Of a stretch of DNA of 37,459 nucleotides, positions 406 through 36,892 are shown piece after piece. Positions within the stretch are counted from its first letter, which is position 1, and every line of letters starts with the position of its first letter. The stretch comes from a virus (Duplodnaviria > Heunggongvirae > Uroviricota > Caudoviricetes), in IMG/VR virus record IMGVR_UViG_2695420539_000016, one strand, 5' to 3'. The translations under genes were made by a program, and so were the position numbers. The notes under the pieces are model-generated. The model was given only the letters and a program-made list of their open reading frames with translations, was not told the DNA's origin and searched no databases.

Positions 406-613
406 CTAAAGTTGGATGCTTAAGAAATGCTTCATAATTCAGTAAGGCATTAGCATAATGGGAATAAAAGTACAGAGACTATCCCTATGGATGATAAATA
501 CTGTCCTTTTATTGCTACCCATAAATAATCACCATGCCAATACTATCAAATTGATATTTGAAATGTGATCACTTGACTTTCTATACGTTATTTTATAACG
601 GTTAATATATTTA

Positions 614-643
614 TAAAAACAACGGGTGTGCCATACGCCCGTT
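614..643 (-). terminator. icd-terminator-like hairpin (second, diverged copy)
   Basis: Stem AACGGG(T)G / CGCCCGTT, A-run upstream on + strand (T-run on - strand); about 55 bp resemble the icd 3' UTR/terminator. Confidence 0.3.
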
Positions 644-1100
644 TCAATACTTAACGCACATGTGTTTTGGTTTAGTCATCATCCAGTTATATGTATTTTA
701 GCCAGGAACAGGTTAAACCTTTCCTATATAACTCAAAAATTGAAACCTTATTCTCATGTCATGCTTATATTCATTATTATCGTTATATAAAAAGGCAACC
801 ATAATGTTTAGCAAATTGGCACAAAGTAGCATAAAGGCTATGTTTTAATTACAGGATGTTCAGTCATTTGAATGTATAACATTATAGCTAAACAAATCTA
901 AAACGAAGTGAATAATTTATTGTTTTCACTAAATCTCATTTTGTTTAACATCCATTGAGATTCCTTGCTTTAAATTTTGTTTTATATAAGCAATCGTTTT
1001 AATTAATTTATTTTTTGAAGGGGTAATATACTCATATGCAAAATAAAGAAATGAACATCCAAATGAACTATATTAAATACCGTGGGATAAGACATAACAA

Positions 1101-1424
1101 ATGAAGTGGATAGTAATTGACACGATAATTCAACCTTCATGCGGCATATCTTTTTCAGCCATATGGGGTAATATGAAAATGATCATCTGGTATCAATCTA
1201 CTATATTTCTCCCTCCTGGCAGTATATTTACACCGGTTAAATCTGGAATTATCCTTAAAGATAAAGAATATCCTATTACTATTTATAACATCGCACCATT
1301 CAACAAGGATTTATGGAGTCTACTCAAAAGCAGTCAAGAGTGTCCTCCAGGAGAAAGCAAAATAACAAATAAATGTTTGCATAATAGTTGCATTATAAAA
1401 ATATGCCCATATGGGCTCAAGTAA
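1101..1424 (+). CDS. iraM: Anti-adaptor protein IraM (RssB inhibitor), left-arm copy
   Basis: 107-aa [35 protein letters not shown]... matches my recollection of E. coli IraM (YcgW) nearly residue for residue; AT-rich context. Confidence 0.65.
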
Positions 1425-1471
1425 AGGGTTTTATATAAATATGCTCGATATGCTATTAATAATACCTACAT

Positions 1472-1504
1472 AAATAAAACAACGGGCGTGTTATACGCCC
1501 GTTG
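1472..1504 (-). terminator. icd rho-independent terminator (left-arm copy)
   Basis: GC-rich stem CAACGGGCG / CGCCCGTTG followed by T-run, directly after the icd-fragment stop. Confidence 0.5.
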
Positions 1505-1526
1505 CAATATTAAACACATGTAGTGA

Positions 1527-1691
1527 TTACATGTTCTTGATGATCGCATCACCAAATTCTGAACATTTCAGCAGTTTAGCGCCTTCCATCAGACGTTCGA
1601 AGTCATAGGTTACAGTCTTGGCGTTGATTGCGCCTTCCATACCTTTAACAATCAGGTCTGCGGCTTCAGTCCAGCCCATATGGCGTAACAT
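1527..1691 (-). pseudogene. icdC: icd 3' fragment (icdC), prophage attR relic, left-arm copy
   Basis: Translates [54 protein letters not shown], the C-terminus of isocitrate dehydrogenase; no upstream icd sequence, AT-rich phage-side DNA abuts it. Confidence 0.75.
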
Positions 1692-2227
1692 TAGATTTAG
1701 AAAATTATTATATCCAATTGAATTAAAACAATTTTATACTTAACGAACATCTAAACTTGTTTTTTTACCTTCACCATAACTCGCTGATTTTGTATAGTTT
1801 ACGTAGCGTTTTGATAACCACTTTATGGCAAAATGGAGGTTCGCTTGAAAACTTCTGTTCTTATCCAGAAATTAATGGAAATTGACAAAACTGTACTATT
1901 CGATGCGGACGTAGTGACCGGTGAGGAATGGTGGCCAACCCCGATTTCTCGTGTTTATCACAATCCGCCACATACTTATGTAGAATTTTAAACAGGTGAA
2001 CAATCTCAAAATGAATCTGACGAGCTAAGTGTTTATAGCGAATTACAAATTTGTGCACATCGAATGATGCAAATTAGAGATTTTGTGCAATCTAACGAGG
2101 GACTGAAACCTGAAAAAATTGTTTCGGAAATAAACATTCAAATTGAACGTATTAAAAAGTGATGGCTGAAGCAATTCTGAAACACTAATTCATATTCTAT
2201 GTTCTTCATACCAATGTGGATTTAACT

Positions 2228-2253
2228 CCCACCCACCCACCAACCCACCAACC
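2228..2253 (-). repeat. G-quadruplex-type G-tract cluster (C-rich on + strand), about 260 bp upstream of the GmrSD-like gene
   Basis: cccacccacccaccaacccaccaacc on + strand, i.e. GGG-N-GGG-N-GGG-N-GGG on - strand, isolated in AT-rich DNA. Confidence 0.35.
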
Positions 2254-2472
2254 ATGATTGGGCGGCGCAAGAAACTAATATCAATTAAAACAGCAAGTTA
2301 TCAGTCTAAACAGAACACCAACGGGATGGAGGAGAGACAAAAAATATCCAATGAAACCGTAGCGCGTCAGCATTCAAAAGCGGGGTTTCTTATTTTTACT
2401 TCACCAGTAACAAATACACTGTATCATAACTACATAAAAATGATTGTTCTGACTCAGATGAATTTCTTACTC

Positions 2473-2501
2473 TTGTGGAATGTCACTTAATGTTATTTAT
2501 A
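2473..2501 (+). promoter_or_regulatory. Candidate sigma70 promoter of the GmrSD-like gene (mirrored at 8412..8440 on - strand)
   Basis: TTGTGG, 17-bp spacer, TTTATA, then AGGT Shine-Dalgarno and ATG at 2510; read by eye. Confidence 0.25.
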
Positions 2502-2509
2502 GGTAAACA

Positions 2510-4399
2510 ATGAAATCCGAAACGCTAACCATCCAGCAAATTTTCCAAAATCAACGACAATATCGTGTTCCATTCTATCAACGTGCCTACGTATGGACGC
2601 AACGAAACCAATGGTCAGCTTTGTTGGAGGATATCTTCGAAAAAGCACAGAGCCGACTTTCGGGAACAAAACCAACCCCTCATTTCCTCGGCGCGGTGGT
2701 GCTGGAACCTCAACTCAAAAACAGCTTGTTAGGTGTAGATACCATACATATTATTGACGGCCAGCAACGTTTAACCACTCTTCAATATATTCTGGCATCC
2801 ATTCGATTATCATTGCGTGCTACAGGCCTTTCTGAACTGGAAGGGTTAGTATTGACTTGCTTGAAAAATACAAACGAAGCAACGATGAGAAATAAAAAGG
2901 TAGAATGCTTCAAACTGTGGCCAACTTTTCGAGATCAAACTCATTTTATTCAAAGTCTTAATGTTGATAATATTGACGATCTCCGTAATGTATTTTCTGA
3001 TAGCTTCACGCAACATGGTACGTTACGTAAACATTTCAACCACCCGCCGTCACTAGAGGCATTATGGTTTTTTACTGAAGCCTTTATAAAATGGATTAAA
3101 ATAGAAAACCACTCACCACAAGAAAATGCTGTAGCACTAATTGAGGCTGTCTTGACGGATCTGAAACTGGTAAGCATATTTCTCGAAGCTGAAGATGATG
3201 CCCAAATAATTTTTGAAACATTAAATGGGCGAGGAGCGGAACTTCATGCAACGGATCTTATTCGCAACTATATCTTTATGTGCGCTGAGCATGAAAATAT
3301 TAATGCTATTGAATTATATGAAAATGAGTGGAAGATCTTTGAAGATAAATACTGGTCGGAAAAGCAACGCCGTGGACGTATTAATAAACCACGCATGGAG
3401 TGGCTTGTACATGCGACATTGCAATCAGAAAGGCAGCGTGAAATTGATCTGTCTCGCCTTTACAATGAGTATCGTGATTATGTAAGTAAGGACTTGCCTT
3501 CACAACGAGCAGATCTGCAAGTAAAGCGCCTCAAACAATATGCATCACAATATAAAGAATTGGTTGGTGGTTTTGGCACAACCCCCATCTCACACTTTGG
3601 ACATCGCATCGCAGCCTATGATGTGACGACACTCTATCCGCTTGCTTTGTTCATTTCGATAGCTAACATCGCCGATGATGAGAAAGCAGCCATGTATAAT
3701 GATCTTGTCTCCTACGTAGTACGAAGATCCGTATGTGGCCTGACGCCAAAGAATTACAACAATGTATTTATGAATGTATTGCGACACTTGTCTAAAACGG
3801 AAATTTCCAGTGTTGAGTTACGTAATATCCTCAATAGCTTAAATGGCGAAGCCTCACGTTGGCCTGGGGACTCAGAATTTCTCAACGCTTGCATCAATGC
3901 TCCACTTTATCCTGGCAGGCTCGACGCACCGAAAATGCGCTCAATGTTAACGGAACTTGAAAGAGAACTTTGTCGCCAAGTGAAGACAGAAAAGCCTGAT
4001 GTTCCAAATCTTTCTAATCTCGATATCGATCATCTTATGCCTCAAAGTTGGTATTCCTGTTGGCCTCTCGAAAATGGTCATATGGTGACAAATTCAGATG
4101 CTACGGTAATGAACCAAATTGTTCTGTCTGGAACCGATCTTACCCCTGAACAGCTACTGGTAAGGAAACGGCAACAAGCGATAGCTACGTTGGGAAATCT
4201 AACTTTGCTTAACCTTAGCGTAAACCGTTCCGTTCAGAATGCTGTATTTCTGAAAAAACGTGATGCTCTCATCGTCCACACCAATCTACGACTGAACATA
4301 CCACTTATACTTAAGGATAAATGGGATGAGAGTGAAATACAGGAGCGAGGTAAAAAGTTGGGGGAAATTGCATTGAAAGTATGGCCAAAATACGATTAA
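2510..4399 (+). CDS. DUF262/DUF1524 protein, GmrSD/BrxU-type candidate type IV (modification-dependent) restriction endonuclease, left-arm copy
   Basis: 629 aa; N-terminal ParB-like DUF262 motifs YRVPFYQRAYVW and IIDGQQRLTTL; C-terminal DUF1524/HNH-like motifs DIDHLMPQ and GNLTLLNLSVNRSVQN. Confidence 0.8.
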   Translation: MKSETLTIQQIFQNQRQYRVPFYQRAYVWTQRNQWSALLEDIFEKAQSRLSGTKPTPHFLGAVVLEPQLKNSLLGVDTIHIIDGQQRLTTLQYILASIRLSLRATGLSELEGLVLTCLKNTNEATMRNKKVECFKLWPTFRDQTHFIQSLNVDNIDDLRNVFSDSFTQHGTLRKHFNHPPSLEALWFFTEAFIKWIKIENHSPQENAVALIEAVLTDLKLVSIFLEAEDDAQIIFETLNGRGAELHATDLIRNYIFMCAEHENINAIELYENEWKIFEDKYWSEKQRRGRINKPRMEWLVHATLQSERQREIDLSRLYNEYRDYVSKDLPSQRADLQVKRLKQYASQYKELVGGFGTTPISHFGHRIAAYDVTTLYPLALFISIANIADDEKAAMYNDLVSYVVRRSVCGLTPKNYNNVFMNVLRHLSKTEISSVELRNILNSLNGEASRWPGDSEFLNACINAPLYPGRLDAPKMRSMLTELERELCRQVKTEKPDVPNLSNLDIDHLMPQSWYSCWPLENGHMVTNSDATVMNQIVLSGTDLTPEQLLVRKRQQAIATLGNLTLLNLSVNRSVQNAVFLKKRDALIVHTNLRLNIPLILKDKWDESEIQERGKKLGEIALKVWPKYD

Positions 4400-4421
4400 T
4401 GCAATTAATAAAATGATTATA

Positions 4422-4445
4422 GCGGCCTTACATTAGTAAGGCCGC
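4422..4445. terminator. Hairpin between convergent pin stub and GmrSD-like gene (possible bidirectional terminator)
   Basis: Mirror of 6468..6491: 9-bp stem GCGGCCTTA / TAAGGCCGC, 6-nt loop. Confidence 0.35.
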
Positions 4446-4624
4446 AACTCACTATTAAATCCTTTAATTTGCATCAAGAACAGCACTGTCAGCCCTAGGC
4501 TCTCGGACTTTGTACCGCTTATCTTGTCTTCAAAAATCAGCTCGCATCCTGCACAGTTCAACGCATTACGTTGTAGATCGATTTTCTGGTCATTTGTTGA
4601 TACGCAAACATAGCCAATAAGCAT
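4433..4624 (-). pseudogene. Truncated Hin/Gin/Pin-family serine invertase (pin 5' stub, about 45 native codons)
   Basis: MLIGYVCVSTNDQKIDLQRNALNCAGCELIFEDKISGT... matches Pin/Gin N-terminus, then diverges into 18 unrelated codons and stops; conserved Arg before the catalytic Ser is Cys. Confidence 0.75.
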
Positions 4625-4650
4625 GGTAGCTCCCTCTGACAAAAGCAGGA

Positions 4651-5058
4651 ATGATGCCATTTTCTCGTTATTTCTGCATTTTCATAAACGTTGGTTTGGG
4701 AGAAGCGGCAAAACGGAATGTAGGTAACGGGCAAAACCAAATTCCGGATATGGCGGCGTTTGCCAGTTCACTTTCATCAACGGGTTTTCAAAAACTCCCT
4801 TCAGGTCTGATTATTCAGTGGGGTATTGTCAGTGGAGCATCAAACTATACGGTGACTTACCCGGTAACATTCCCAAATCGTTCACTTGCGCTGTTGGCTG
4901 TGCCACATACAACGTCGTTGGCTGGTATATCTGCAATGGGCATTGCGAACTGTTCTGATATCACCAAATCACAGTTCTATATAATTGTTGGCGGTATATC
5001 TCAGGGAGAAATTGTCAAATATGAAAGGTCCTGTTTTTGGGTAGCAATCGGTGTATAG
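4651..5058 (+). CDS. Tail-fibre variable C-terminal exon A, here orphaned (first codons come from the flank, not from a fibre constant region)
   Basis: Residues after GLGE are identical to the C-terminal part of the 218-aa fibre at 34814..35470; the leader MMPFSRYFCIFINV is antisense of the pin stub region. Confidence 0.5.
   Translation: MMPFSRYFCIFINVGLGEAAKRNVGNGQNQIPDMAAFASSLSSTGFQKLPSGLIIQWGIVSGASNYTVTYPVTFPNRSLALLAVPHTTSLAGISAMGIANCSDITKSQFYIIVGGISQGEIVKYERSCFWVAIGV
4679..4704. other. Hybrid crossover site: outer half-site is the inverted outer half of ixR, inner half-site is that of ixL
   Basis: TTTTCATAAACG-TT-GGTTTGGGAGAA; compare normal ixL at 35091..35116 (CTCTTCAAAACC-TT-GGTTTGGGAGAA) and ixR at 6209..6234. 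Confidence 0.55.
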
Positions 5059-5066
5059 GTATATCT

Positions 5067-5462
5067 ATGATTTATTTCTCAAAATCGACTAATGGTTTTT
5101 TCTTTGATGGTATAAACAGCGACATGCCTGCTGACATTGTTGAGATAAGTACAGACTTATACAATGAATTAATTGCCGGACAGCAGGAAGGGGGTAAATT
5201 AATCACGTCAGATGAAAATGGTTTACCGGTACTGAAATCTCCGGCGATTGATTATGTCGCACGTGCTGAAAATCAGCGAATGCAGTTACTTGCTCATGCC
5301 GATAATGTCACAGCTGACTGGCGAGTGGAATTAATGCTTGGTGATATCAGCAGTACAGATAAAGAAAAACTATCCGCCTGGATGGACTACAAAAAAGAAG
5401 TAAAAGCCGTCGACACTTCGACGGCTCCTGAGATTAGCTGGCCTGAGTTACCGGAGGTGTAG
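5067..5462 (+). CDS. Tail fibre assembly protein (Tfa), partner of exon A
   Basis: C-terminal motif VDTSTAPEISWPELPEV typical of lambda Tfa / Mu U family; weak RBS before ATG at 5067. Confidence 0.75.
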   Translation: MIYFSKSTNGFFFDGINSDMPADIVEISTDLYNELIAGQQEGGKLITSDENGLPVLKSPAIDYVARAENQRMQLLAHADNVTADWRVELMLGDISSTDKEKLSAWMDYKKEVKAVDTSTAPEISWPELPEV

Positions 5463-5871
5463 GCCATTCAATATCTGGAGCACTGGAGGTATCCACCAGT
5501 TCCAGTGCGTCCAGGTAATCCAGCCACAAATTATATAGTGCCAGTTCCTCGTCTTTCAGACGACCAATAGCGGCTTTACCGGGCCATTGTTTACTGTTCA
5601 TGTATTCGTTGGCCTGATTAAGCAATAATTGCCTTTCTGATTCTGCCTGTTGAATAAGTTCTTCATGCGATGGTGGAGGTATTAGTGCCCATGTGGGTAA
5701 TCCATTTTTTCCTGCAACACGAATTTTGTCATATGGGGGCGTATTGATTGCAAATTCATTATAAACATCATCACTGACAGCCAGAGCATCATCTGGCCAT
5801 GAATTTGCATTAATGTAATCATCCTTAAGCGCAGGATTCACAAAAATGTTTAATGATGGACTATAAAACAT
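5434..5871 (-). CDS. Tail fibre assembly protein (Tfa'), partner of exon B
   Basis: 145 aa ending ...LVDTSSAPDIEWPTPPVTQAS; convergent with the other tfa and overlapping its 3' end. Confidence 0.75.
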   Translation of the reverse strand: MFYSPSLNIFVNPALKDDYINANSWPDDALAVSDDVYNEFAINTPPYDKIRVAGKNGLPTWALIPPPSHEELIQQAESERQLLLNQANEYMNSKQWPGKAAIGRLKDEELALYNLWLDYLDALELVDTSSAPDIEWPTPPVTQAS

Positions 5872-5872
5872 A

Positions 5873-6262
5873 TTAACCCCCTATAGCGATATAACGACCT
5901 AATACAGCATTTGCAGCAGTCGCTATGCTTGAAAAACCGCGGAACTGATTTGATGTAATTGCAGAAGCCGACAGGATTCCTGCGCCTGAAGGTGTATGCC
6001 CCACATGACTAACTATCATTCCATAACATGCTGACGGAAAGGCAAAAGGAAAATCATTAAGATATCCGGCATCTTCACCACCAGACCCACCAAATCTCGC
6101 CTGCCCCCACTGAATAATCAGTGTTCTCCGGGAACCTGAAATAATTAACGGAATCGTTACATACCCATTCAGACCAATGACACCCGATGCAGTGCCAGCC
6201 AGAGATAATTCTCCCAAACCAACGTTTATGAAAATGCAGAAATAACGAGAAAATGGCATCAT
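5873..6262 (-). CDS. Tail-fibre variable C-terminal exon B (alternative receptor-binding domain) with the same 18-codon flank-derived leader
   Basis: Shares MMPFSRYFCIFINVGLGE with the exon A ORF, then a different Gly/Ser-rich C-terminal domain. Confidence 0.5.
   Translation of the reverse strand: MMPFSRYFCIFINVGLGELSLAGTASGVIGLNGYVTIPLIISGSRRTLIIQWGQARFGGSGGEDAGYLNDFPFAFPSACYGMIVSHVGHTPSGAGILSASAITSNQFRGFSSIATAANAVLGRYIAIGG
6209..6234. other. Crossover site ixR of the invertible segment, copy 1
   Basis: TTCTCCCAAACC-AA-CGTTTATGAAAA; inner half is the exact inverted repeat of the ixL inner half. Confidence 0.55.
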
Positions 6263-6288
6263 TCCTGCTTTTGTCAGAGGGAGCTACC

Positions 6289-6480
6289 ATGCTTATTGGC
6301 TATGTTTGCGTATCAACAAATGACCAGAAAATCGATCTACAACGTAATGCGTTGAACTGTGCAGGATGCGAGCTGATTTTTGAAGACAAGATAAGCGGTA
6401 CAAAGTCCGAGAGCCTAGGGCTGACAGTGCTGTTCTTGATGCAAATTAAAGGATTTAATAGTGAGTTGCGGCCTTACTAA
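6289..6480 (+). pseudogene. Truncated pin-type invertase stub (right-arm copy)
   Basis: Same as 4433..4624; GGGAG RBS then ATG; stop codon lies in the loop of the downstream hairpin. Confidence 0.75.
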
Positions 6481-6491
6481 TGTAAGGCCGC
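6468..6491. terminator. Hairpin between pin stub and GmrSD-like gene
   Basis: GCGGCCTTA-CTAATG-TAAGGCCGC, followed by TATAATCATTTTATT. Confidence 0.35.
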
Positions 6492-6513
6492 TATAATCAT
6501 TTTATTAATTGCA

Positions 6514-8403
6514 TTAATCGTATTTTGGCCATACTTTCAATGCAATTTCCCCCAACTTTTTACCTCGCTCCTGTATTTCACTCTCATCCCATTTATCCTT
6601 AAGTATAAGTGGTATGTTCAGTCGTAGATTGGTGTGGACGATGAGAGCATCACGTTTTTTCAGAAATACAGCATTCTGAACGGAACGGTTTACGCTAAGG
6701 TTAAGCAAAGTTAGATTTCCCAACGTAGCTATCGCTTGTTGCCGTTTCCTTACCAGTAGCTGTTCAGGGGTAAGATCGGTTCCAGACAGAACAATTTGGT
6801 TCATTACCGTAGCATCTGAATTTGTCACCATATGACCATTTTCGAGAGGCCAACAGGAATACCAACTTTGAGGCATAAGATGATCGATATCGAGATTAGA
6901 AAGATTTGGAACATCAGGCTTTTCTGTCTTCACTTGGCGACAAAGTTCTCTTTCAAGTTCCGTTAACATTGAGCGCATTTTCGGTGCGTCGAGCCTGCCA
7001 GGATAAAGTGGAGCATTGATGCAAGCGTTGAGAAATTCTGAGTCCCCAGGCCAACGTGAGGCTTCGCCATTTAAGCTATTGAGGATATTACGTAACTCAA
7101 CACTGGAAATTTCCGTTTTAGACAAGTGTCGCAATACATTCATAAATACATTGTTGTAATTCTTTGGCGTCAGGCCACATACGGATCTTCGTACTACGTA
7201 GGAGACAAGATCATTATACATGGCTGCTTTCTCATCATCGGCGATGTTAGCTATCGAAATGAACAAAGCAAGCGGATAGAGTGTCGTCACATCATAGGCT
7301 GCGATGCGATGTCCAAAGTGTGAGATGGGGGTTGTGCCAAAACCACCAACCAATTCTTTATATTGTGATGCATATTGTTTGAGGCGCTTTACTTGCAGAT
7401 CTGCTCGTTGTGAAGGCAAGTCCTTACTTACATAATCACGATACTCATTGTAAAGGCGAGACAGATCAATTTCACGCTGCCTTTCTGATTGCAATGTCGC
7501 ATGTACAAGCCACTCCATGCGTGGTTTATTAATACGTCCACGGCGTTGCTTTTCCGACCAGTATTTATCTTCAAAGATCTTCCACTCATTTTCATATAAT
7601 TCAATAGCATTAATATTTTCATGCTCAGCGCACATAAAGATATAGTTGCGAATAAGATCCGTTGCATGAAGTTCCGCTCCTCGCCCATTTAATGTTTCAA
7701 AAATTATTTGGGCATCATCTTCAGCTTCGAGAAATATGCTTACCAGTTTCAGATCCGTCAAGACAGCCTCAATTAGTGCTACAGCATTTTCTTGTGGTGA
7801 GTGGTTTTCTATTTTAATCCATTTTATAAAGGCTTCAGTAAAAAACCATAATGCCTCTAGTGACGGCGGGTGGTTGAAATGTTTACGTAACGTACCATGT
7901 TGCGTGAAGCTATCAGAAAATACATTACGGAGATCGTCAATATTATCAACATTAAGACTTTGAATAAAATGAGTTTGATCTCGAAAAGTTGGCCACAGTT
8001 TGAAGCATTCTACCTTTTTATTTCTCATCGTTGCTTCGTTTGTATTTTTCAAGCAAGTCAATACTAACCCTTCCAGTTCAGAAAGGCCTGTAGCACGCAA
8101 TGATAATCGAATGGATGCCAGAATATATTGAAGAGTGGTTAAACGTTGCTGGCCGTCAATAATATGTATGGTATCTACACCTAACAAGCTGTTTTTGAGT
8201 TGAGGTTCCAGCACCACCGCGCCGAGGAAATGAGGGGTTGGTTTTGTTCCCGAAAGTCGGCTCTGTGCTTTTTCGAAGATATCCTCCAACAAAGCTGACC
8301 ATTGGTTTCGTTGCGTCCATACGTAGGCACGTTGATAGAATGGAACACGATATTGTCGTTGATTTTGGAAAATTTGCTGGATGGTTAGCGTTTCGGATTT
8401 CAT
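6514..8403 (-). CDS. DUF262/DUF1524 GmrSD/BrxU-type candidate type IV restriction endonuclease (right-arm copy)
   Basis: Identical 629-aa translation to 2510..4399. Confidence 0.8.
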   Translation of the reverse strand: MKSETLTIQQIFQNQRQYRVPFYQRAYVWTQRNQWSALLEDIFEKAQSRLSGTKPTPHFLGAVVLEPQLKNSLLGVDTIHIIDGQQRLTTLQYILASIRLSLRATGLSELEGLVLTCLKNTNEATMRNKKVECFKLWPTFRDQTHFIQSLNVDNIDDLRNVFSDSFTQHGTLRKHFNHPPSLEALWFFTEAFIKWIKIENHSPQENAVALIEAVLTDLKLVSIFLEAEDDAQIIFETLNGRGAELHATDLIRNYIFMCAEHENINAIELYENEWKIFEDKYWSEKQRRGRINKPRMEWLVHATLQSERQREIDLSRLYNEYRDYVSKDLPSQRADLQVKRLKQYASQYKELVGGFGTTPISHFGHRIAAYDVTTLYPLALFISIANIADDEKAAMYNDLVSYVVRRSVCGLTPKNYNNVFMNVLRHLSKTEISSVELRNILNSLNGEASRWPGDSEFLNACINAPLYPGRLDAPKMRSMLTELERELCRQVKTEKPDVPNLSNLDIDHLMPQSWYSCWPLENGHMVTNSDATVMNQIVLSGTDLTPEQLLVRKRQQAIATLGNLTLLNLSVNRSVQNAVFLKKRDALIVHTNLRLNIPLILKDKWDESEIQERGKKLGEIALKVWPKYD

Positions 8404-8659
8404 TGTTTACCTATAAATAACATTAAGTGACATTCCACAAGAGTAAGAAATTCATCTGAGTCAGAACAATCATTTTTATGTAGTTATGATACAGTGTATT
8501 TGTTACTGGTGAAGTAAAAATAAGAAACCCCGCTTTTGAATGCTGACGCGCTACGGTTTCATTGGATATTTTTTGTCTCTCCTCCATCCCGTTGGTGTTC
8601 TGTTTAGACTGATAACTTGCTGTTTTAATTGATATTAGTTTCTTGCGCCGCCCAATCAT

Positions 8660-8685
8660 GGTTGGTGGGTTGGTGGGTGGGTGGG
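8660..8685 (+). repeat. G-quadruplex-type motif upstream of the GmrSD-like gene
   Basis: ggttggtgggttggtgggtgggtggg. Confidence 0.35.
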
Positions 8686-9221
8686 AGTTAAATCCACATT
8701 GGTATGAAGAACATAGAATATGAATTAGTGTTTCAGAATTGCTTCAGCCATCACTTTTTAATACGTTCAATTTGAATGTTTATTTCCGAAACAATTTTTT
8801 CAGGTTTCAGTCCCTCGTTAGATTGCACAAAATCTCTAATTTGCATCATTCGATGTGCACAAATTTGTAATTCGCTATAAACACTTAGCTCGTCAGATTC
8901 ATTTTGAGATTGTTCACCTGTTTAAAATTCTACATAAGTATGTGGCGGATTGTGATAAACACGAGAAATCGGGGTTGGCCACCATTCCTCACCGGTCACT
9001 ACGTCCGCATCGAATAGTACAGTTTTGTCAATTTCCATTAATTTCTGGATAAGAACAGAAGTTTTCAAGCGAACCTCCATTTTGCCATAAAGTGGTTATC
9101 AAAACGCTACGTAAACTATACAAAATCAGCGAGTTATGGTGAAGGTAAAAAAACAAGTTTAGATGTTCGTTAAGTATAAAATTGTTTTAATTCAATTGGA
9201 TATAATAATTTTCTAAATCTA

Positions 9222-9386
9222 ATGTTACGCCATATGGGCTGGACTGAAGCCGCAGACCTGATTGTTAAAGGTATGGAAGGCGCAATCAACGCCAAGACTG
9301 TAACCTATGACTTCGAACGTCTGATGGAAGGCGCTAAACTGCTGAAATGTTCAGAATTTGGTGATGCGATCATCAAGAACATGTAA
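9222..9386 (+). pseudogene. icdC: icd 3' fragment (icdC), prophage right attachment relic
   Basis: 54 codons encoding the Icd C-terminus; homology starts abruptly at 9222 after AT-rich phage-side DNA. Confidence 0.75.
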
Positions 9387-9408
9387 TCACTACATGTGTT
9401 TAATATTG

Positions 9409-9441
9409 CAACGGGCGTATAACACGCCCGTTGTTTTATTT
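9409..9441 (+). terminator. icd rho-independent terminator
   Basis: CAACGGGCG-TATAACA-CGCCCGTTG followed by TTTTATTT. Confidence 0.55.
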
Positions 9442-9488
9442 ATGTAGGTATTATTAATAGCATATCGAGCATATTTATATAAAACCCT

Positions 9489-9812
9489 TTACTTGAGCCC
9501 ATATGGGCATATTTTTATAATGCAACTATTATGCAAACATTTATTTGTTATTTTGCTTTCTCCTGGAGGACACTCTTGACTGCTTTTGAGTAGACTCCAT
9601 AAATCCTTGTTGAATGGTGCGATGTTATAAATAGTAATAGGATATTCTTTATCTTTAAGGATAATTCCAGATTTAACCGGTGTAAATATACTGCCAGGAG
9701 GGAGAAATATAGTAGATTGATACCAGATGATCATTTTCATATTACCCCATATGGCTGAAAAAGATATGCCGCATGAAGGTTGAATTATCGTGTCAATTAC
9801 TATCCACTTCAT
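9489..9812 (-). CDS. iraM: Anti-adaptor protein IraM (right-arm copy)
   Basis: Identical translation to 1101..1424. Confidence 0.65.
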
Positions 9813-10269
9813 TTGTTATGTCTTATCCCACGGTATTTAATATAGTTCATTTGGATGTTCATTTCTTTATTTTGCATATGAGTATATTACCCCTTCAAAA
9901 AATAAATTAATTAAAACGATTGCTTATATAAAACAAAATTTAAAGCAAGGAATCTCAATGGATGTTAAACAAAATGAGATTTAGTGAAAACAATAAATTA
10001 TTCACTTCGTTTTAGATTTGTTTAGCTATAATGTTATACATTCAAATGACTGAACATCCTGTAATTAAAACATAGCCTTTATGCTACTTTGTGCCAATTT
10101 GCTAAACATTATGGTTGCCTTTTTATATAACGATAATAATGAATATAAGCATGACATGAGAATAAGGTTTCAATTTTTGAGTTATATAGGAAAGGTTTAA
10201 CCTGTTCCTGGCTAAAATACATATAACTGGATGATGACTAAACCAAAACACATGTGCGTTAAGTATTGA

Positions 10270-10299
10270 AACGGGCGTATGGCACACCCGTTGTTTTTA
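10270..10299 (+). terminator. Second icd-terminator-like hairpin (diverged duplicate)
   Basis: AACGGGCG-TATGGCA-CACCCGTT then TGTTTTTAT; upstream bases also resemble the icd 3' UTR. Confidence 0.3.
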
Positions 10300-10507
10300 T
10301 AAATATATTAACCGTTATAAAATAACGTATAGAAAGTCAAGTGATCACATTTCAAATATCAATTTGATAGTATTGGCATGGTGATTATTTATGGGTAGCA
10401 ATAAAAGGACAGTATTTATCATCCATAGGGATAGTCTCTGTACTTTTATTCCCATTATGCTAATGCCTTACTGAATTATGAAGCATTTCTTAAGCATCCA
10501 ACTTTAG

Positions 10508-10912
10508 CTAGATTAATGGTTTATTATTTTCTACATCTTCAATATATAAAAGCGTATTATCAATGGCGTAGTAACTGCGTTTGTTATGATTAACATCAGT
10601 AACCCACCGGAAAACGCCCGCGCCTGCTAGTGTTGAACAGTATTCCCGAAATGTAGATTTTCCGCAAATATGAAGCAATGCGGCCTCTTTTATTTTAGCA
10701 GGGTTCTTGGTCGTACTAACTTTTAACAGGTTCCTGGTTCCTCTTAATAACAAAACCGTGTCATCGTGAGTAATAATTCTGATGTTATCCGTAGCCAGAT
10801 AATAAATGTAATGTGCAATACGGTGATGTTTTAATTCTGAATAAAACCAGGAGAAGTTTTGCTCTTTTCTCACTTGCTCAAACATCTTTTGAAAAACAAC
10901 GACCTGATCCAT
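10508..10912 (-). CDS. ycgX: YcgX-like small protein (right-arm copy)
   Basis: Identical translation to 1..405; GAGG RBS lies at 10913+ so the gene context continues naturally past the visible palindrome edge. Confidence 0.5.
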   Translation of the reverse strand: MDQVVVFQKMFEQVRKEQNFSWFYSELKHHRIAHYIYYLATDNIRIITHDDTVLLLRGTRNLLKVSTTKNPAKIKEAALLHICGKSTFREYCSTLAGAGVFRWVTDVNHNKRSYYAIDNTLLYIEDVENNKPLI

Positions 10913-11132
10913 CAGGATAATAACCTCTTGTTAGTTGTGAGACTGCGTAGTGTGCACGATCGGTTTTACCACTTCAATCTGGTCTGTCCTTTGGCTGTGA
11001 TATGTACAGAGTGTGATAGAGGGAATATCTGAATTCTCCCGGTGAGCATTTTGCAACGGACCAGCTCCGGTACAAACGCTGTTGTGGGTTCAGATTATAA
11101 CATTCTGTCTAAGGGGCGGGATAAAGGTGAAA

Positions 11133-11400
11133 TTAGGGGGCATGAAAGATGACTTTATAACCTTGCTCACCCCAATGTTGTAAAAGTTCGTTTTGCCTTC
11201 TCGTTGGTGCCATGCCTGTCCAGACAATCAATGTTTGCGTCGGGAACAGTTCCGGGCGCGGCGATTCAATGGGATCAGCAAGAACAGAAATGTGCCATCC
11301 TGACAATGATAAACGCCATGCTTCCAGCCACAATCGTGCTCTCTCTTCAACATTCCACGCCATCAGAATGGCTTCTTTACCGGGCTTACGGCGCATTACT
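11133..11400 (-). pseudogene. bluR: 3' fragment of a BluR/MlrA-type MerR-family regulator; by synteny probably bluR (ycgE)
   Basis: C-terminal roughly 85 codons of the 168-aa ORF (...[52 protein letters not shown]...) resemble the BluR/MlrA C-terminal domain as I recall it; no MerR HTH region exists upstream on this strand. Confidence 0.45.
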
Positions 11401-12289
11401 GCTGGAGCCTGAGCCGGAGCATTATTCATCTTTCGCCAGTGGTGCCGTTCCCGCGGCATCACAACCGCTGGCGGATGATCCTGTCGTTCGGGCCGTGTTC
11501 CGTAATGAGGCAGTGATTCGTCGTGCTGGTGGGGTGGAATGTCTTGAAAGCTGGTTACTTCGTGAAAAAGGCTGCCAGTGGCCTCATTCCGACTGGCACA
11601 GCGAGAACATGACCACAATGCGACACGCGCCGGGCGCAATCCGTCTGTGCTGGCACTGCGATAACCAGTTGCGCGATCAGTTCACGGAACGGCTGGAATC
11701 AATGGCAACGGATAACTGTGCCCGCTGGGTATTGTCTGTTGTGCGTCGGGATCTCGGTTTTGATGATAGTCACGTTGTGACAATGCCGGAACTGTGCTGG
11801 TGGCTGGTTCGTAATGACCTGGCGGATGCCTTACCGGAAAGTGCAGCCCGTAAGGCACTGAGATTACCGAAGCCTGTTGTGCCGTCTGTCACCCGGGAAA
11901 GTGACCTTGTGCCTTCGGTTCCTGCCACCAGCATCATCCAGGATAAGGCGAAAAAGGTGCTGGCGCTGAAAGTGGATCCGGAGTCGCCGGAGTCTTTTAT
12001 GTTACGCCCAAAACGTCGCCGCTGGGCTAATGAAAAGTACACGCGCTGGGTTAAGACACAGCCGTGTGCATGTTGTGGAAAGCTTGCTGATGATCCCCAC
12101 CACCTGATAGGCGACGGTCAGGGGGGAATGGGTACAAAAGCGCATGACCTCTTTGTGTTGCCTTTGTGCAGAAAGCATCACGACGATCTGCATGCGGATA
12201 CCGTGGCATTTGAAGAAAAGTATGGCTCCCAGTTGGAGCTGATATTTCGTTTTATCGATCGTGCGCTGGCAATTGGCGTGCTGGCGTAA
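11204..12289 (+). CDS. DUF968-type phage protein (Qin YdfU-like) with C-terminal Cys/His zinc-binding motif; 5' end uncertain and probably truncated by the junction
   Basis: C-terminus ...[24 protein letters not shown]...[12 protein letters not shown]; the track start is a TTG and the first roughly 60 codons are antisense to the bluR fragment; first in-frame ATG beyond the joint is at 11609. Confidence 0.5.
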
Positions 12290-12302
12290 GTGGAGAACGA
12301 GC

Positions 12303-13055
12303 ATGAACCTTGAAGCCTTACCAAAATATTACTCCCCAAAATCTCCAAAATTGAGCGATGACGCACCGGCGACAGGCTCAGGTGGTTTAACGATTACGGA
12401 TGTGATGGCTGCGCAGGGGATGGTGCAGTCGAAAGCACCGCTTGGGTTTGCCTTATTCCTGGCAAAAGTTGGTGTTCAGGATCCTCAGTTTGCGATTGAA
12501 GGTCTGCTCAATTACGCGATGGCACTGGATAACCCGACATTGAACAAATTGAGTGAAGAAACCCGGTTACAGATCATCCCTTACCTTGTGAATTTTGCCT
12601 TTGCTGATTATTCCAGGTCTGCGGCAAGTAAGGCTCGCTGTGAGCATTGTGCTGGTACTGGATTTCATAATGTATTGCGCGAAGTGGTGAAACACTCCAG
12701 AAGCGGGGAATCTGTTATCAAGGAAGAGTGGGTGAAGGAACTATGTCAGCATTGCCATGGTAAGGGAGAAGTCAGCACCGCGTGCAGAGGGTGTAAGGGT
12801 AAAGGTATTGTCCTGGATGAAAAAAGAACCCGGCTTCATGGCACGCCTGTTTATAAGATTTGTGGGCGTTGCAGTGGAAACCGGTTTAGCCGTTTACCAA
12901 CCACACTGGCGCGGCTTCATGTCCAGAAGCTGGTACCAGACCTGACGGATTATCAGTGGTACAAAGGATATGCAGATGTCATTGATAAACTGGTTACAAA
13001 GTGCTGGCAGGAGGAAGCTTACGCTGAAGCACAATTGAGAAGGGTGACGAGATAA
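12303..13055 (+). CDS. Late-gene antitermination protein Q (QuuQ/YdfT-like)
   Basis: 250 aa from ATG 12303 with GGAGAA RBS; four CxxC pairs (CEHCAGTGF, CQHCHGKGE, CRGCKGKG, CGRCSGN); lies directly upstream of the lysis cassette. Confidence 0.65.
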   Translation: MNLEALPKYYSPKSPKLSDDAPATGSGGLTITDVMAAQGMVQSKAPLGFALFLAKVGVQDPQFAIEGLLNYAMALDNPTLNKLSEETRLQIIPYLVNFAFADYSRSAASKARCEHCAGTGFHNVLREVVKHSRSGESVIKEEWVKELCQHCHGKGEVSTACRGCKGKGIVLDEKRTRLHGTPVYKICGRCSGNRFSRLPTTLARLHVQKLVPDLTDYQWYKGYADVIDKLVTKCWQEEAYAEAQLRRVTR

Positions 13056-13162
13056 GCGATTTTCGCCGAAGATAACGACATAATACTTGTATTTCTCAAA
13101 AAATATGGATAAGATTTTCTCAACGATGGGGCTTGTGTATCTATCGTTGAACAATTTTTACG

Positions 13163-13188
13163 ACCTCGCTATTGCGAGGTTTTTTTAT
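13163..13188 (+). terminator. Rho-independent terminator downstream of Q (tR'-like)
   Basis: ACCTCGC-TATT-GCGAGGT followed by TTTTTT. Confidence 0.55.
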
Positions 13189-13198
13189 GGTTTTTTTC

Positions 13199-13232
13199 TA
13201 TTCAATCTACATCAAAATCAATGTGTTATAAT
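13199..13232 (+). promoter_or_regulatory. Candidate promoter of moron 1 with extended -10
   Basis: TGtTATAAT at 13224..13232 with T-rich upstream region; AGGAGA RBS before ATG 13270. Confidence 0.3.
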
Positions 13233-13269
13233 GTTTTCTGTAAAACAACATTAAAAACAGGAGAACATT

Positions 13270-13539
13270 ATGAAACTGACCTCTATCCATCTTGAAATAC
13301 TACGTCGAGTGAATGAATTGCAGCCAAAGGATTCTAGAATTCAGGCTGCATCATTACCTCATCTCTCAGCAAAAGAGGTTAACTTTGCTATTTCAGATCT
13401 TGCTGATATAGGTTTTATCGATGTTATACGAAGCAAATCTGCCGAAGGTGGATTGATTGCTAATGAGATAACGTCAAAAGGTTTTGCTTTTTTGAGTGAG
13501 ATTGGCGCTGAAAAAAATTCATCGATGAGCACTCATTGA
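13270..13539 (+). CDS. Small winged-helix-like protein (moron 1, gene 1)
   Basis: 89 aa with strong AGGAGA RBS; helix-turn-wing pattern LEILRRV...EVNFAISDLADIGFIDV; AT-rich. Confidence 0.5.
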   Translation: MKLTSIHLEILRRVNELQPKDSRIQAASLPHLSAKEVNFAISDLADIGFIDVIRSKSAEGGLIANEITSKGFAFLSEIGAEKNSSMSTH

Positions 13540-13553
13540 TTTCTGCTTCAATC

Positions 13554-13571
13554 GGCTGCCAATTGGCAGCC
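13554..13571. other. Perfect 18-bp palindrome GGCTGCCAATTGGCAGCC (possible operator or attenuator hairpin)
   Basis: Exact dyad 15 bp after the stop of the 89-aa gene; no T-tract follows. Confidence 0.3.
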
Positions 13572-13736
13572 TAAACTGTAAAGTGAATTTAAAATCGCCT
13601 ACAATTGATGCTTAAATTTTGTTCTGTATCATCTGCAGGTTTAGGGATATCACAGTAGCTTTCTGACAAGAAGAGTTCTTTTCTTCTACCAATGAAGTGG
13701 TTATGTTAACCTGCGCTAAATCGAGACTGGTGCGGA

Positions 13737-14543
13737 GTGGAATCGAAAGTGTCATATTTTTACAGAAGCAAGAATATTTCAGGTGTTTCTATAAATGAAG
13801 ATAGCTTGATTAGCTTAAGCACGGCAATTGTCGAACGCTGCGTTAAAATGAATGAGCAAGCTCAAAAGGAAAGTAGGGAAGTTTGTGCTCAATGTGTTTT
13901 TTTTATTTTGTTCGATGGTAAGGGGTATAAAGTTGATTCTATCGGTGAGCTTGTGAAATACTTTAGACAGGCCACTAGGATTGATCAAATAATTTTTACT
14001 ATTGAAACTTATCAAAGTCGACAGTCTAACAGGATGAATGGATCTTGGATGGAGCTACGAATTGATGAGAGGAATTCAAATAGCAGCACAATGATTGTAG
14101 CATCGGAAGATAATGAGTGGGTTGACTCGTTATGGATTACGATTCAGGATTTACTTAACAAGTGCAAAAATAAATTTAGATTTTTTAGAACAGCTTGGAC
14201 TATGTTAAGTATCCAGATTTCAGGTGTGACAGTTGGCTTTTTGCTTAGCTTATGGACAGCCTCAAAACTGGCGCCAAAACTATCAATCGATGGTGCATTT
14301 GCTTTATCATTTATTTGTATCTTTATTTTGTTTTCGAACTTATGGAGCTTTGCTATTCCATTAATAATTAAGCTTATCGACTTTTTGTTTCCTAGTGTTA
14401 AGTTTGTTATTAATGGTAAAAATTACTTTCACTGGAGTGTCCAGGCTATAATTGGAGCGATTGCCAGTGCGGTTATATTGTATTTTATTAGCTCCATGTT
14501 GCTTTTTGCATTAGAAATGTTAAATAGCATCATTAAGAAATAG
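13737..14543 (+). CDS. Membrane protein with soluble N-terminal domain and about four C-terminal transmembrane helices (moron 1, gene 2)
   Basis: 268-aa ORF (GTG start in the track; first ATG at 13848); hydrophobic C-terminal stretches; visibly AT-rich against neighbouring phage genes. Confidence 0.5.
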   Translation: MESKVSYFYRSKNISGVSINEDSLISLSTAIVERCVKMNEQAQKESREVCAQCVFFILFDGKGYKVDSIGELVKYFRQATRIDQIIFTIETYQSRQSNRMNGSWMELRIDERNSNSSTMIVASEDNEWVDSLWITIQDLLNKCKNKFRFFRTAWTMLSIQISGVTVGFLLSLWTASKLAPKLSIDGAFALSFICIFILFSNLWSFAIPLIIKLIDFLFPSVKFVINGKNYFHWSVQAIIGAIASAVILYFISSMLLFALEMLNSIIKK

Positions 14544-14651
14544 TTAATGAATTAGTTATAATTACATCAATTCTATGGCTGCCAAATGGTGGCCTTTTTT
14601 ATTCCTCTCATTTCTATTTCTGAGAGGACTCACTGCAATAAGAGGTGGCTA

Positions 14652-15920: not shown

Positions 15921-15927
15921 GGTCACT

Positions 15928-16336: not shown

Positions 16337-16347
16337 GGCAAACGAGA

Positions 16348-16370
16348 TTGCGGGCAATTATCGCCCGCAA
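16348..16370. terminator. Hairpin between convergent Rz1 and the antisense moron gene
   Basis: TTGCGGGC-AATTATC-GCCCGCAA. Confidence 0.35.
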
Positions 16371-16378
16371 TAAAGTTA

Positions 16379-36700: not shown

Positions 36701-36892
36701 ATGCTTATTGGCTATGTTTGCGTATCAACAAATGACCAGAAAATCGATCTACAACGTAATGCGTTGAACTGTGCAGGATGCGAGCTGATTTTTGAAGACA
36801 AGATAAGCGGTACAAAGTCCGAGAGCCTAGGGCTGACAGTGCTGTTCTTGATGCAAATTAAAGGATTTAATAGTGAGTTGCGGCCTTACTAA
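36701..36892 (+). pseudogene. Truncated pin-type invertase stub (third copy)
   Basis: Identical to 6289..6480. Confidence 0.75.

Follow-up and report, generated by a model that had tools for sequence, protein, structure and literature searches.

The closest described relative of the locus studied here lies in prophage e14 of Escherichia coli K-12, in which a segment of tail-fibre and assembly genes (the P segment) is followed by the invertase gene pinE, the type IV restriction gene mcrA, and the att site. The invertases PinQ and PinR, of prophages Qin and Rac, also invert the e14 P segment in trans; the orientation of the segment has a phenotype, since a chimeric Stf protein blocks T2 adsorption, and a deletion of pinE left the segment locked (Kirigo et al. 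2025, PMC12529663). The locked segment could mean that an enhancer was lost, or that PinE is the main enzyme.

A truncated invertase beside a tail-fibre switch is already a well-known kind of relic. In prophage Phi4 of strain EC958, a severely truncated invertase lies beside a segment that is found in both orientations in PacBio reads, and its authors credit the inversion to an enzyme acting in trans; they also warn that long reads of mixed orientation lead to artefactual duplications in assemblies (Forde et al. 2014, PMC4134206). The Fis-dependent enhancer of DNA invertase systems is an element of 65 bp, with a Fis site at each end, located about 100 bp from one of the recombination sites and active at a distance (PMC3798978). 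The enzymes of the GmrSD family, for their part, cleave DNA containing modified cytosines, a reaction stimulated by NTP (PMC12707154).

We analysed a stretch of 37,459 nucleotides, hereafter the window, from the virus record IMGVR_UViG_2695420539_000016. The reading that we favour, with a probability of roughly 0.78, is that the window holds the remnant of a pin gene left by one ancestral event, that the cis-acting parts of the switch survive, and that the segment still inverts through Pin-family invertases supplied in trans. On this reading, one illegitimate event deleted everything downstream of codon 45 of pin; where K-12 has mcrA, the interval now contains a GmrSD gene, an ORF of 78 amino acids and their hairpin. 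The remnant cannot make an invertase and drifts neutrally, by substitutions here and by a frameshift in another lineage. Both 26-bp crossover sites survive, together with the 5'-most 135 nt of pin and the homologue of the P1 cin enhancer that they contain; with these parts in place, the 1.5-kb tail-fibre segment still inverts, a reaction that would be catalysed by the Pin-family invertases of co-resident prophages. The finding is an ordinary one, of practical value and with little conceptual news. The features are collected in Table 1.

Table 1. Coordinates of the features discussed in the text (window positions).
Feature	Position	Strand	Basis or remark
Invertase stub ORF, 63 aa + stop	6289..6480	+	Translation; Gin and Pfam alignments
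Codon 7, TGC (Cys) instead of the conserved Arg (CGC or AGG)	6307..6309	+	pinE/cin/stub alignments
Homologue of the Fis-dependent recombinational enhancer, placed by homology	6307..6378	+	P1/P7 cin annotation
Candidate Fis cores, inferred	6310-6324; 6359-6373		Identical to K-12 pinE
26-bp crossover (pix) site, stub side	6209..6234	+	TTCTCCCAAACC AA CGTTTATGAAAA; central dinucleotide 6221-6222
Invertible P-type segment, 1504 nt	4705..6208		Pfam; block inverted between 22-245 and 22-250
Segment ORFs, a tail-fibre C-terminus and an assembly gene per cassette	4651-5058; 5037-5462; 5434-5871; 5873-6262	+; +; -; -	
Perfect 10-bp GC-rich hairpin, loop TAAT	6468..6491		Fold -23.9 kcal/mol, z = -6.4
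Predicted GmrSD-family type IV restriction endonuclease, intact, 629 aa	6514..8403	-	Pfam and PADLOC
78-aa ORF accompanying the GmrSD gene	8423..8659	-	Part of the module common to all contexts
Replacement block relative to K-12 e14, 2787 bp	6425..9211		blastn: homology stops at 6424, resumes at 9212
Mirror stub copy	4433..4624	-	In inverted repeat 1-4704; crossover 4679-4704; GmrSD copy 2510-4399 (+)
Third stub copy, native context	36701..36892	+	Collinear at 100% with strain 22-245
Surroundings of the third copy			Tail-fibre gene 34814-35470; segment 35117-36620; partial GmrSD gene from 36926 to the window end

The invertase remnant and the DNA that follows it

The locus is the right-hand end of a prophage of the e14 family, inserted at icd. 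It follows the e14-family prophage of E. coli strain 22-245 collinearly, at 100% identity, and continues with icd', iraM, ymgK, ymgL, ycgX and bluR, a chromosomal site identical to that of e14. The order of the components is also that of e14, with the same 26-bp crossover site and 90% identity over the first 135 nt of pin. In K-12 this place reads pinE-mcrA-icdC: pin is intact and McrA is co-directional with it, whereas in the window pin breaks off after codon 45, a GmrSD gene of 629 codons, convergent with pin, is the restriction gene, and the prophage keeps a full late region.

The stub translates as MLIGYVCVSTNDQKIDLQRNALNCAGCELIFEDKISGTKSESLGLTVLFLMQIKGFNSELRPY, followed by the stop codon; a Shine-Dalgarno-like AGGGAG lies 7-12 nt upstream of 6289, and an alternative in-frame ATG, upstream at 6253, would give a version of 75 amino acids. 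Homology to the intact pinE genes of K-12 and PM06121, at 90-92% DNA identity, begins with the crossover site at 6209 and extends as far as 6424, which is codon 45 plus one base. The preliminary description had counted about 45 native codons, and the comparison bears it out: codons 1-45 (6289-6423) are native pin and codons 46-63 are foreign. The protein aligns with Gin (PDB 4m6f/3uj3) over residues 1-46, with an E value of 2e-16, and its residues 3-47 match the Pfam Resolvase profile (PF00239) at positions 2-54 of 145 only, where a serine invertase has a complete catalytic domain of about 140 residues.

With PinE as query, tblastn finds residues 1-49, and in no frame of the window does it find any of residues 50-184. 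The truncation is thus not a frameshift whose correction, as that of a sequencing error, would recover a full-length ORF; the E helix and the C-terminal HTH domain (PF02796) of serine invertases are absent, and the same search finds no intact invertase elsewhere in the window. About 75% of the invertase is gone, including the larger part of the catalytic domain and, with it, both the E helix and the DNA-binding domain. The ORF is a pseudogene remnant of a Pin/Gin-type serine invertase.

In what is left, the nucleophile Ser9 is retained, and the arginine found two residues ahead of it in Gin, Cin and PinE is a cysteine, leaving the motif YxRVS with one of its pair of residues. This substitution was correctly noted in the preliminary description, which called the gene catalytically compromised on its account; as a cause, it is beside the point in a protein that has lost three quarters of its length. 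Relative to older variants, the window stub carries the changes R7C, N14K and T15I. The stubs of E. coli S3, E. coli H22 and E. fergusonii keep Arg7, Asn14 and Thr15, that of H22 has a 1-nt deletion that shifts the frame, and another variant has Phe7. Since older stubs keep Arg7, and one of them is frameshifted, R7C is neutral drift that came after the truncation. The truncation itself, with the replacement of the DNA that followed, is a single, old event: the same breakpoint is found in copies that are 95-96% identical, and in other chromosomal contexts.

The gene had been described as cut by the insertion of a defence cassette. A GmrSD gene does stand beside the cut, but the event is no simple insertion: the 2787 bp of the replacement block, with the GmrSD gene and the 78-aa ORF, stand for 1584 bp in K-12, which are codons 46-184 of pinE and mcrA. 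The part of pinE that was lost is its 3' 420 nt. Homology to K-12 resumes at the end of e14 next to icdC, and the replaced stretch extends up to the att core at icd'; the part of the block that is common to all contexts ends around 8668-8683 (loci L010, L019 and others compared). Between pin and att, K-12 has mcrA, and PM06121 has three hypothetical genes. In e14-family prophages this interval is a variable cargo slot in which type IV restriction genes are exchanged: McrA in K-12, GmrSD here.

The GmrSD gene, which 296 of 5426 complete E. coli genomes carry, joins in one polypeptide the two domains of its family, an N-terminal GmrSD_N (DUF262, PF03235; residues 8-256, 1.7e-33) and a C-terminal His-Me nuclease domain GmrSD_C (DUF1524, PF07510; residues 451-619, 4.9e-20). 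The match to the PADLOC model mREase_IV is full-length, with 1523.7 bits over positions 1-629 of 629, and the predicted product is a modification-dependent type IV restriction enzyme. The 78-aa ORF has no match in Pfam or PADLOC.

As had been described, the stub runs through 18 unrelated codons and stops in a hairpin loop next to the convergent GmrSD gene. The arms of the hairpin are at 6468-6477 and 6482-6491, the stop codon TAA (6478-6480) is inside the 4-nt loop, and 33 nt separate it from the stop codon of the GmrSD gene. None of 200 shuffled sequences folds as stably. The hairpin, which has no clean T run, is not called an intrinsic terminator by a consensus scan of 6100-6650, a scan that yielded no promoter or terminator in this interval; with Rfam, the interval 6000-11500 yielded nothing but a match to tpke11 below the threshold. 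No exact copy of the hairpin was found in species-representative genomes, where it was sought as a mark of GmrSD genes without a pin stub.

A few observations concern the 18-codon tail. It bears a weak likeness to residues 46-55 of gamma-delta resolvase, and its region has 46% DNA identity to pinE over 28 nt. A possible origin of codons 46-56 in a second, divergent recombinase gene was examined by a search for a full-length recombinase that bears the tail (LGLTVLFLMQIKG...); it returned proteins of 42-108 amino acids, all of them stubs.

Inversion of the tail-fibre segment

The stub adjoins, as invertase genes do, a segment bounded by inverted 26-bp crossover sites. The central copy has them at 4679-4704 and 6209-6234, with strand exchange at 4691-4692 and 6221-6222; the native copy has one on the tail-fibre side, at 35091-35116, and one on the stub side, at 36621-36646. 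The sites are identical in their inner halves and central dinucleotide. The site on the stub side is invariant among the window, the stubs of S3 and H22, and the pinE loci of K-12 and PM06121, and the published repeat of the e14 P segment is part of it (PMC12529663). The segment has the organisation of that P segment: the domains Gp53-like_C and Caudo_TAP are found on both of its strands, in two opposed cassettes, one of which is fused in frame to the constant 5' part of the tail-fibre gene. The resulting 218-aa fibre ORF (34814-35470) crosses the crossover site, and has an alternative form of 212 amino acids in flipped genomes.

When 15,932 nt of strains 22-245 and 22-250 are compared, the only difference is that the 1504-nt segment is exactly inverted, with ends at the pix sites; both orientations thus occur between otherwise identical flanks. 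Among complete genomes with the stub and the GmrSD gene, the two orientations are found 12 and 6 times, and among ten assemblies, 4 and 6 times. Both orientations have the identical stub beside them, at 100% over 312 nt, and in the window itself the left end of the segment is joined to the tail-fibre gene and also to the stub side. Junction probes of 600 nt recover 48 and 56 genomes, counts that include loci with an intact pin, for which 86% coverage is possible, and are not specific to the stub. The switch is not frozen. The preliminary description had proposed that it was either frozen or dependent on an invertase supplied in trans, and only the second branch stands: the flipping is most likely due to invertases made elsewhere in the cell.

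As for the enzyme, we infer that it belongs to the Pin-family invertases of other prophages in the same cell. Both 22-245 and 22-250 have two further chromosomal places that are homologous to the 3' part of pinE, as revealed by a chimeric query made of GmrSD and the pinE 3' part. At blastn sensitivity, about 13 of 60 GmrSD-bearing chromosomes, among the matches listed, have no pinE-like 3' sequence; in those, the switch may be frozen, or may rely on a distant paralogue such as PinQ or PinR. These two enzymes are a precedent for the flipping of the P-segment family by invertases of other prophages, with the difference that in K-12 the resident pinE is intact, and that enhancer and stubs are not the subject of PMC12529663. 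Prophage Phi4 of EC958 resembles our locus in its truncated invertase, in the 26-bp crossover sites that bound its invertible tail-fibre segment, and in the presence of both orientations; it is, however, another prophage with another crossover sequence, the truncation there removes the HTH domain only, and no defence gene is reported as replacing the lost DNA.

Three other explanations of the stub and its segment have to be weighed against these data. If the orientations had been fixed before the truncation, or had spread by horizontal exchange of prophage arms, the switch could be frozen after all, and it is true that the window encodes no invertase and that some GmrSD-bearing chromosomes lack a second pinE-like sequence. 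Yet 22-245 and 22-250 differ by one clean site-to-site inversion and not a single substitution, identical stubs flank both orientations, the window itself has both types of junction for the left end of the segment, and inversion in trans has been described (PMC12529663, PMC4134206): we consider a frozen switch improbable. An error of sequencing or assembly that hides a full-length invertase could be suspected in a window that is collinear with no complete genome and has duplications resembling those of assemblies. It is effectively refuted already: a public assembly collection has the exact 63-aa product in 2503 of its indexed blocks, with finished chromosomes among the ten places inspected, PGAP labels the equivalent stub of finished genomes 'recombinase family protein, incomplete, missing C-terminus', and nothing past residue 49 of PinE is present in any frame. 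The peptide could, finally, have a function of its own, such as regulation, or dominant-negative pairing with Pin-family invertases; its good Shine-Dalgarno-like sequence, its intact ORF and its very wide distribution would agree with this. But it is without the E helix needed for dimerisation, and the non-synonymous changes at conserved positions (R7C, R7F, N14K, T15I), together with the frameshift of H22, argue that it is not under purifying selection, which makes such a function very hard to believe. A remnant beside a segment that is inverted in trans thus remains the preferred reading.

A flag such as 'incomplete recombinase' can still mark a working DNA switch, in which the crossover sites, and probably also the enhancer, persist as cis elements after the enzyme is lost, and such loci should not be dismissed by annotation pipelines and inversion surveys.

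The enhancer-homologous region

The preliminary description had also pointed out that the retained 5' region is where systems of the Hin/Gin type carry their enhancer. This agrees with the annotation of the cin genes: the enhancer, at nt 19-90 of the ORF in the P1 record and nt 19-86 in that of P7, maps onto the region given in Table 1, which is wholly retained and ends 46 nt before the break. The region lies 86-157 bp from the crossover centre at 6221/6222, within the range expected of an enhancer, and in the pinE/cin alignment no other part of the 5' region is as well conserved. The difference with P1 and P7 is that the enhancer homologue, known here by its homology, sits in a dead gene. The stretch would, we infer, be functional in the stub locus.

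An enhancer of this kind, also called sis, has two Fis-binding sites about 48 bp apart, and inversion is stimulated when Fis is bound to them. The two candidate cores of Table 1 are what we take to be these sites, assigned by comparison with the hin sequence. None of six lineage-specific substitutions falls in these cores, which cover 30 of the 135 nt; with about 1.3 expected, this is not distinguishable from chance.

It is tempting to conjecture that the stub is kept because selection holds its first 90 nt or so as a cis-acting enhancer, and that the loss of the resident invertase left an 'orphan switch'. We regard this as a tentative idea, with the odds somewhat against it. If it were true, an orphan switch would need only two crossover sites and an enhancer-bearing stub, and several prophages would share one trans-acting control, possibly for the defence of the host, as with PinQ and StfE2. 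Independent truncations of pin in Enterobacteria, beside segments that are polymorphic in orientation, would then almost never lose these first nucleotides.

Repeated copies in the window

The stub is present three times in the window, at 6289-6480 (+), 4433-4624 (-) and 36701-36892 (+), which had escaped the preliminary description. Positions 1-4704 are a 100% inverted copy of 6209-10912, and positions 35103-37459 a direct copy of 4691-7047.

The second stub, in mirror image, is most likely the product of an assembly walk through DNA of mixed orientation, and probably not a second gene. A real arrangement would require a unit of 30.4 kb, from the interior of DUF968 to the interior of bluR, that was amplified in tandem or circularised, and then inverted by site-specific recombination between crossover sites of different copies, which would give a palindrome of 4.7 kb with two stubs. 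Three features fit such a history: the left junction falls exactly at the central dinucleotide of the crossover (4690/4691), as it would in the product of an invertase, the joint between bluR' and 'DUF968 (11397/11399) has the shape of a tandem-duplication or aberrant-excision joint, and all copies are identical. However, an assembler that walks through the flank, the segment and the reverse-complemented flank of a mixed-orientation graph produces the same layout, the very artefact warned of in PMC4134206; both ends of the window coincide exactly with ends of the repeats; the observed order would take three or more tandem copies; and the central copy, with no cassette joined to the constant 5' part, would have no function. 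Neither of the novel junctions is present in 5426 complete E. coli genomes, in phage records, or in viral, metagenome and species-representative contigs. For the joint between bluR' and 'DUF968, the search used a 1-kb probe against the phage records and the complete genomes, and a 30-nt probe against the three sets of contigs. We find a real mirror arrangement unlikely.

Invertible segments in mixed populations can yield palindromic or duplicated contigs, and the perfect inverted repeat of 4.7 kb is best read as one of these assembly products; the stub and the GmrSD gene should therefore not be counted twice.

The remnant of the invertase gene

The main copy of the stub, the 5' remnant of a pin-type serine invertase gene, translates as MLIGYVCVSTNDQKIDLQRNALNCAGCELIFEDKISGTKSESLGLTVLFLMQIKGFNSELRPY*; an alternative in-frame ATG upstream, at 6253, gives a 75-aa form. 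Its product aligns with residues 1-46 of the Mu Gin invertase in structures 4m6f and 3uj3 (E about 1e-16), and its Pfam Resolvase match is limited to profile positions 2-54 of 145. At the DNA level, the similarity to the intact pinE of K-12 e14 and of strain PM06121 (90-92%) runs from the crossover site, position 6209, to 6424, one base after pin codon 45. The preliminary description had counted about 45 native codons, then 18 foreign codons and a stop in a hairpin loop next to the convergent GmrSD gene, and all of this is borne out: the stop codon (6478-6480) falls within the loop, TAAT, of a hairpin with a perfect 10-bp stem (-23.9 kcal/mol, z = -6.4; not scored as an intrinsic terminator by a consensus scan), and 33 nt separate it from the stop codon at which the convergent 629-aa ORF ends. 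Codon 7 is indeed TGC, so that Cys takes the place of the Arg of Gin, Cin and PinE, and the codon for the Ser9 nucleophile is intact. A tblastn search with PinE finds residues 1-49 alone, and residues 50-184 are encoded in no frame of the window: a full-length gene thus cannot be recovered by correcting a sequencing error.

Coordinates of the features discussed, in the window unless a record is named
Feature	Position	Strand	Remark
Stub, main copy	6289-6480	+	
Stub, second copy	4433-4624	-	
Stub, third copy	36701-36892	+	
Stub-side crossover site	6209-6234		
Tail-fibre-side crossover site	35091-35116		
Putative enhancer homologue	6307-6378		
Candidate Fis cores	6310-6324 and 6359-6373		presumed from the hin enhancer
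Hairpin	6468-6491		
GmrSD (DUF262) gene	6514-8403	-	629 aa
Module common to all contexts	6209 to about 8668-8683		
Block inverted between 22-245 and 22-250	435918-437421		records NZ_AP038810.1 and NZ_AP038812.1 (loci L001 vs L002)

The first ten or so foreign codons (6425-6457, TVLFLMQIKG) bear a weak likeness to the same region of gamma-delta resolvase, and the tail DNA shares 46% identity with pinE across 28 nt; at the junction, this stretch may be what remains of another, divergent recombinase gene, or the likeness may be due to chance. Many other truncated stubs of the Pin/Hin/Fin family, of 42-108 aa and with varied breakpoints, occur in E. coli and Salmonella assemblies, some of them on finished chromosomes (protein hits P0009-P0120); every stub retrieved retains at least about 42 N-terminal residues, an outcome toward which the search is biased.

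A switch without a resident invertase

The stub-side crossover site, TTCTCCCAAACC-AA-CGTTTATGAAAA, is invariant in the stub-bearing and intact-pin loci compared, and includes the inverted repeat reported for the P segment of e14 (PMC12529663); the tail-fibre-side site has the same inner half-site and central dinucleotide. The recombinational enhancer is a 65 bp element with a Fis site at either end, about 100 bp from one crossover site, and works at a distance (PMC3798978). GenBank annotates the Cin enhancer at nt 19-90 of cin in P1 and at nt 19-86 in P7, which, in an alignment of the stub, pinE, cin and gin, maps to a highly conserved stretch wholly inside the retained pin part, with 46 nt left before the break. 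To judge from this alignment, the stub retains an enhancer homologue, as had been surmised from its 5' position. The two candidate Fis cores, placed by the hin enhancer sequence, are identical to those of K-12 pinE, and there are few substitutions overall. The one mildly new idea here is that the stub may be kept for its enhancer.

The preliminary description left two states for the switch, frozen or dependent on an invertase supplied in trans, and two chromosomes argue against the first. Strains 22-245 and 22-250, both chicken-meat isolates from one study and with the same gene coordinates, are identical across 15,932 nt at the locus, save for the exact reverse-complementation of the 1504-nt tail-fibre block between the crossover sites. 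The two orientations of the segment stand at 12 versus 6 among complete genomes with the stub, the GmrSD gene and this segment allele, and at 4 versus 6 among ten other assemblies. In the window, the segment's left end has two partners, the tail-fibre gene (35116/35117) in one place and the stub flank (4704/4705) in another, and the change between the two flanks falls exactly at the central dinucleotide; the latter junction is of the type expected of flipped molecules. On these comparisons the switch is not frozen, and the pair 22-245/22-250 is a natural demonstration of its working without a resident invertase.

The second state, dependence on an enzyme in trans, has published precedents: PinQ and PinR, encoded by other cryptic prophages, flip the P segment of e14 (PMC12529663), and a prophage of E. 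coli EC958 with a severely truncated invertase shows both orientations in PacBio reads, for which its authors invoke a trans-acting enzyme (PMC4134206). Together with the lack of any invertase in the window (tblastn with PinE), these lead to the favoured model, in which the invertase gene is dead at the stub, the cis elements of the switch still live, and the segment is probably flipped by catalysis in trans. A chimeric query, the GmrSD gene plus the 3' part of pinE, finds two further chromosomal places with pinE-3'-like DNA in each of 22-245 and 22-250, and, at blastn sensitivity, none in about 13 of the 60 GmrSD-bearing chromosomes listed. Deletion of pinE locked the e14 P segment in the PinQ study (PMC12529663). 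The locking would be explicable by the loss of the enhancer, if the 5' coding region was deleted, as is to be expected of a whole-gene knockout, and equally fits PinE as the main enzyme.

The preliminary description is correct in its observation and largely right in its interpretation. Annotation and literature already cover the phenomenon: an invertase cut short next to a segment that still inverts in trans, the occupation of the e14 cargo slot by a type IV restriction gene, and the artefacts that invertible segments cause in assemblies.

Origin and age of the truncation

The window matches an e14-family E. coli prophage integrated at icd. Strain 22-245 (NZ_AP038810.1) agrees with positions 28094-37459 at 100%; positions 11399-28538 are the late region of its prophage (antiterminator Q, lysis genes, HNH, terminase, portal, capsid, sheath, tube, tape measure); and positions 4681-11397 follow its chromosome in the order tail-fibre segment, stub, DUF262 gene, icd' remnant, iraM, ymgK, ymgL, ycgX, into bluR, where K-12 has stfE-pinE-mcrA-icdC-iraM. 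The likeness to K-12 ends at 6424 and restarts at 9212, the annotated end of e14: the window has 2787 bp (GmrSD, a 78-aa ORF and non-coding DNA) where K-12 has 1584 bp (pinE codons 46-184 and mcrA). The stub had been attributed to the insertion of a defence cassette; set against K-12, the event is no simple insertion but a replacement in the cargo slot that separates pin from att. In PM06121, whose related prophage lies at ssrA, this slot holds three hypothetical genes. The 629-aa protein combines a GmrSD_N with a GmrSD_C domain and covers the PADLOC model mREase_IV end to end (1523.7 bits).

The exact 63-aa stub product, labelled 'recombinase family protein, incomplete, missing C-terminus' by PGAP, is indexed in 2503 blocks of a public assembly collection; the stub lies between the segment and the GmrSD gene in 10 of the 10 places inspected, and the GmrSD gene is found in 296 of 5426 complete E. 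coli genomes. Copies diverged by 4-5% (strains S3 and H22) have the breakpoint and the foreign tail unchanged, that of S3 within a decayed remnant adjoining a type ISP enzyme. Since diverged copies share one breakpoint, one foreign tail and one module, the truncation is a single, ancient event, by now widespread. Arg7, Asn14 and Thr15 are all retained in the stubs of S3, H22 and an E. fergusonii variant; that of H22 has lost 1 nt, and in yet another variant residue 7 is Phe. The loss of the arginine, previously given weight as a catalytic lesion, is therefore late neutral drift in an already dead gene.

At the right end of the stub-GmrSD-orf78 module, about 110 nt (8569-8677) are 75% identical to the end of the PM06121 prophage abutting ssrA (L005 3420-3527), which suggests that an ssrA-integrating relative once carried the module at its att arm, before the module reached the icd site. 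One assembly has the GmrSD gene split into ORFs of 415 aa and 194 aa (L007 10226-12115, GCA_045610665.1). Three assemblies (L007, L009, L015 at 2533-2991) carry a Y1 transposase gene (IS200/IS605-type) in the same prophage, between the DNA-circularisation gene and a 176-aa ORF following the tape-measure gene. Between the icd' remnant and iraM, 9391-9461 (+) gives a sub-threshold Rfam match to the tpke11 sRNA (26.4 bits, gathering score 43).

Architecture of the window

The ORF list of the window is mirror-symmetric, a feature missed in the preliminary description. Positions 1-4704 repeat 6209-10912 in reverse complement at 100% identity, and this perfect inverted repeat of 4704 nt extends to base 1, which is the ATG of ycgX; positions 35103-37459 are an exact direct copy of 4691-7047, a perfect 2357-nt repeat reaching the last base, with a period of 30,412. 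Hence the three occurrences of the stub; the GmrSD gene is present in two and a half copies.

The window is collinear with no complete E. coli genome. At the mirror junction, located at the crossover site, no complete genome spans both stub copies around one segment, the top coverage being 84%. At 11397/11399, the interior of bluR is joined illegitimately to the interior of a prophage DUF968 gene, with one extra A and zero microhomology; this joint is absent from viral, species-representative genome and metagenome contigs, from phage records and from 5426 E. coli genomes, and has the form of a tandem-duplication or aberrant-excision (specialised-transduction-like) joint. Given these two novel junctions and the 30,412-nt period, the window looks like the product of an assembly walk through a 30.4-kb unit, circular or tandem, with the segment in mixed orientation: flank (reverse complement, partial), segment, full unit, segment, flank (partial). 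For an assembly graph to allow such a walk, its reads must have included both orientations of the segment, and the EC958 paper cautions about this sort of artefactual duplication (PMC4134206). A real palindromic amplification is the other way to read the repeats, and we consider it unlikely; artefact or real, the extra stub copies are no independent genes.
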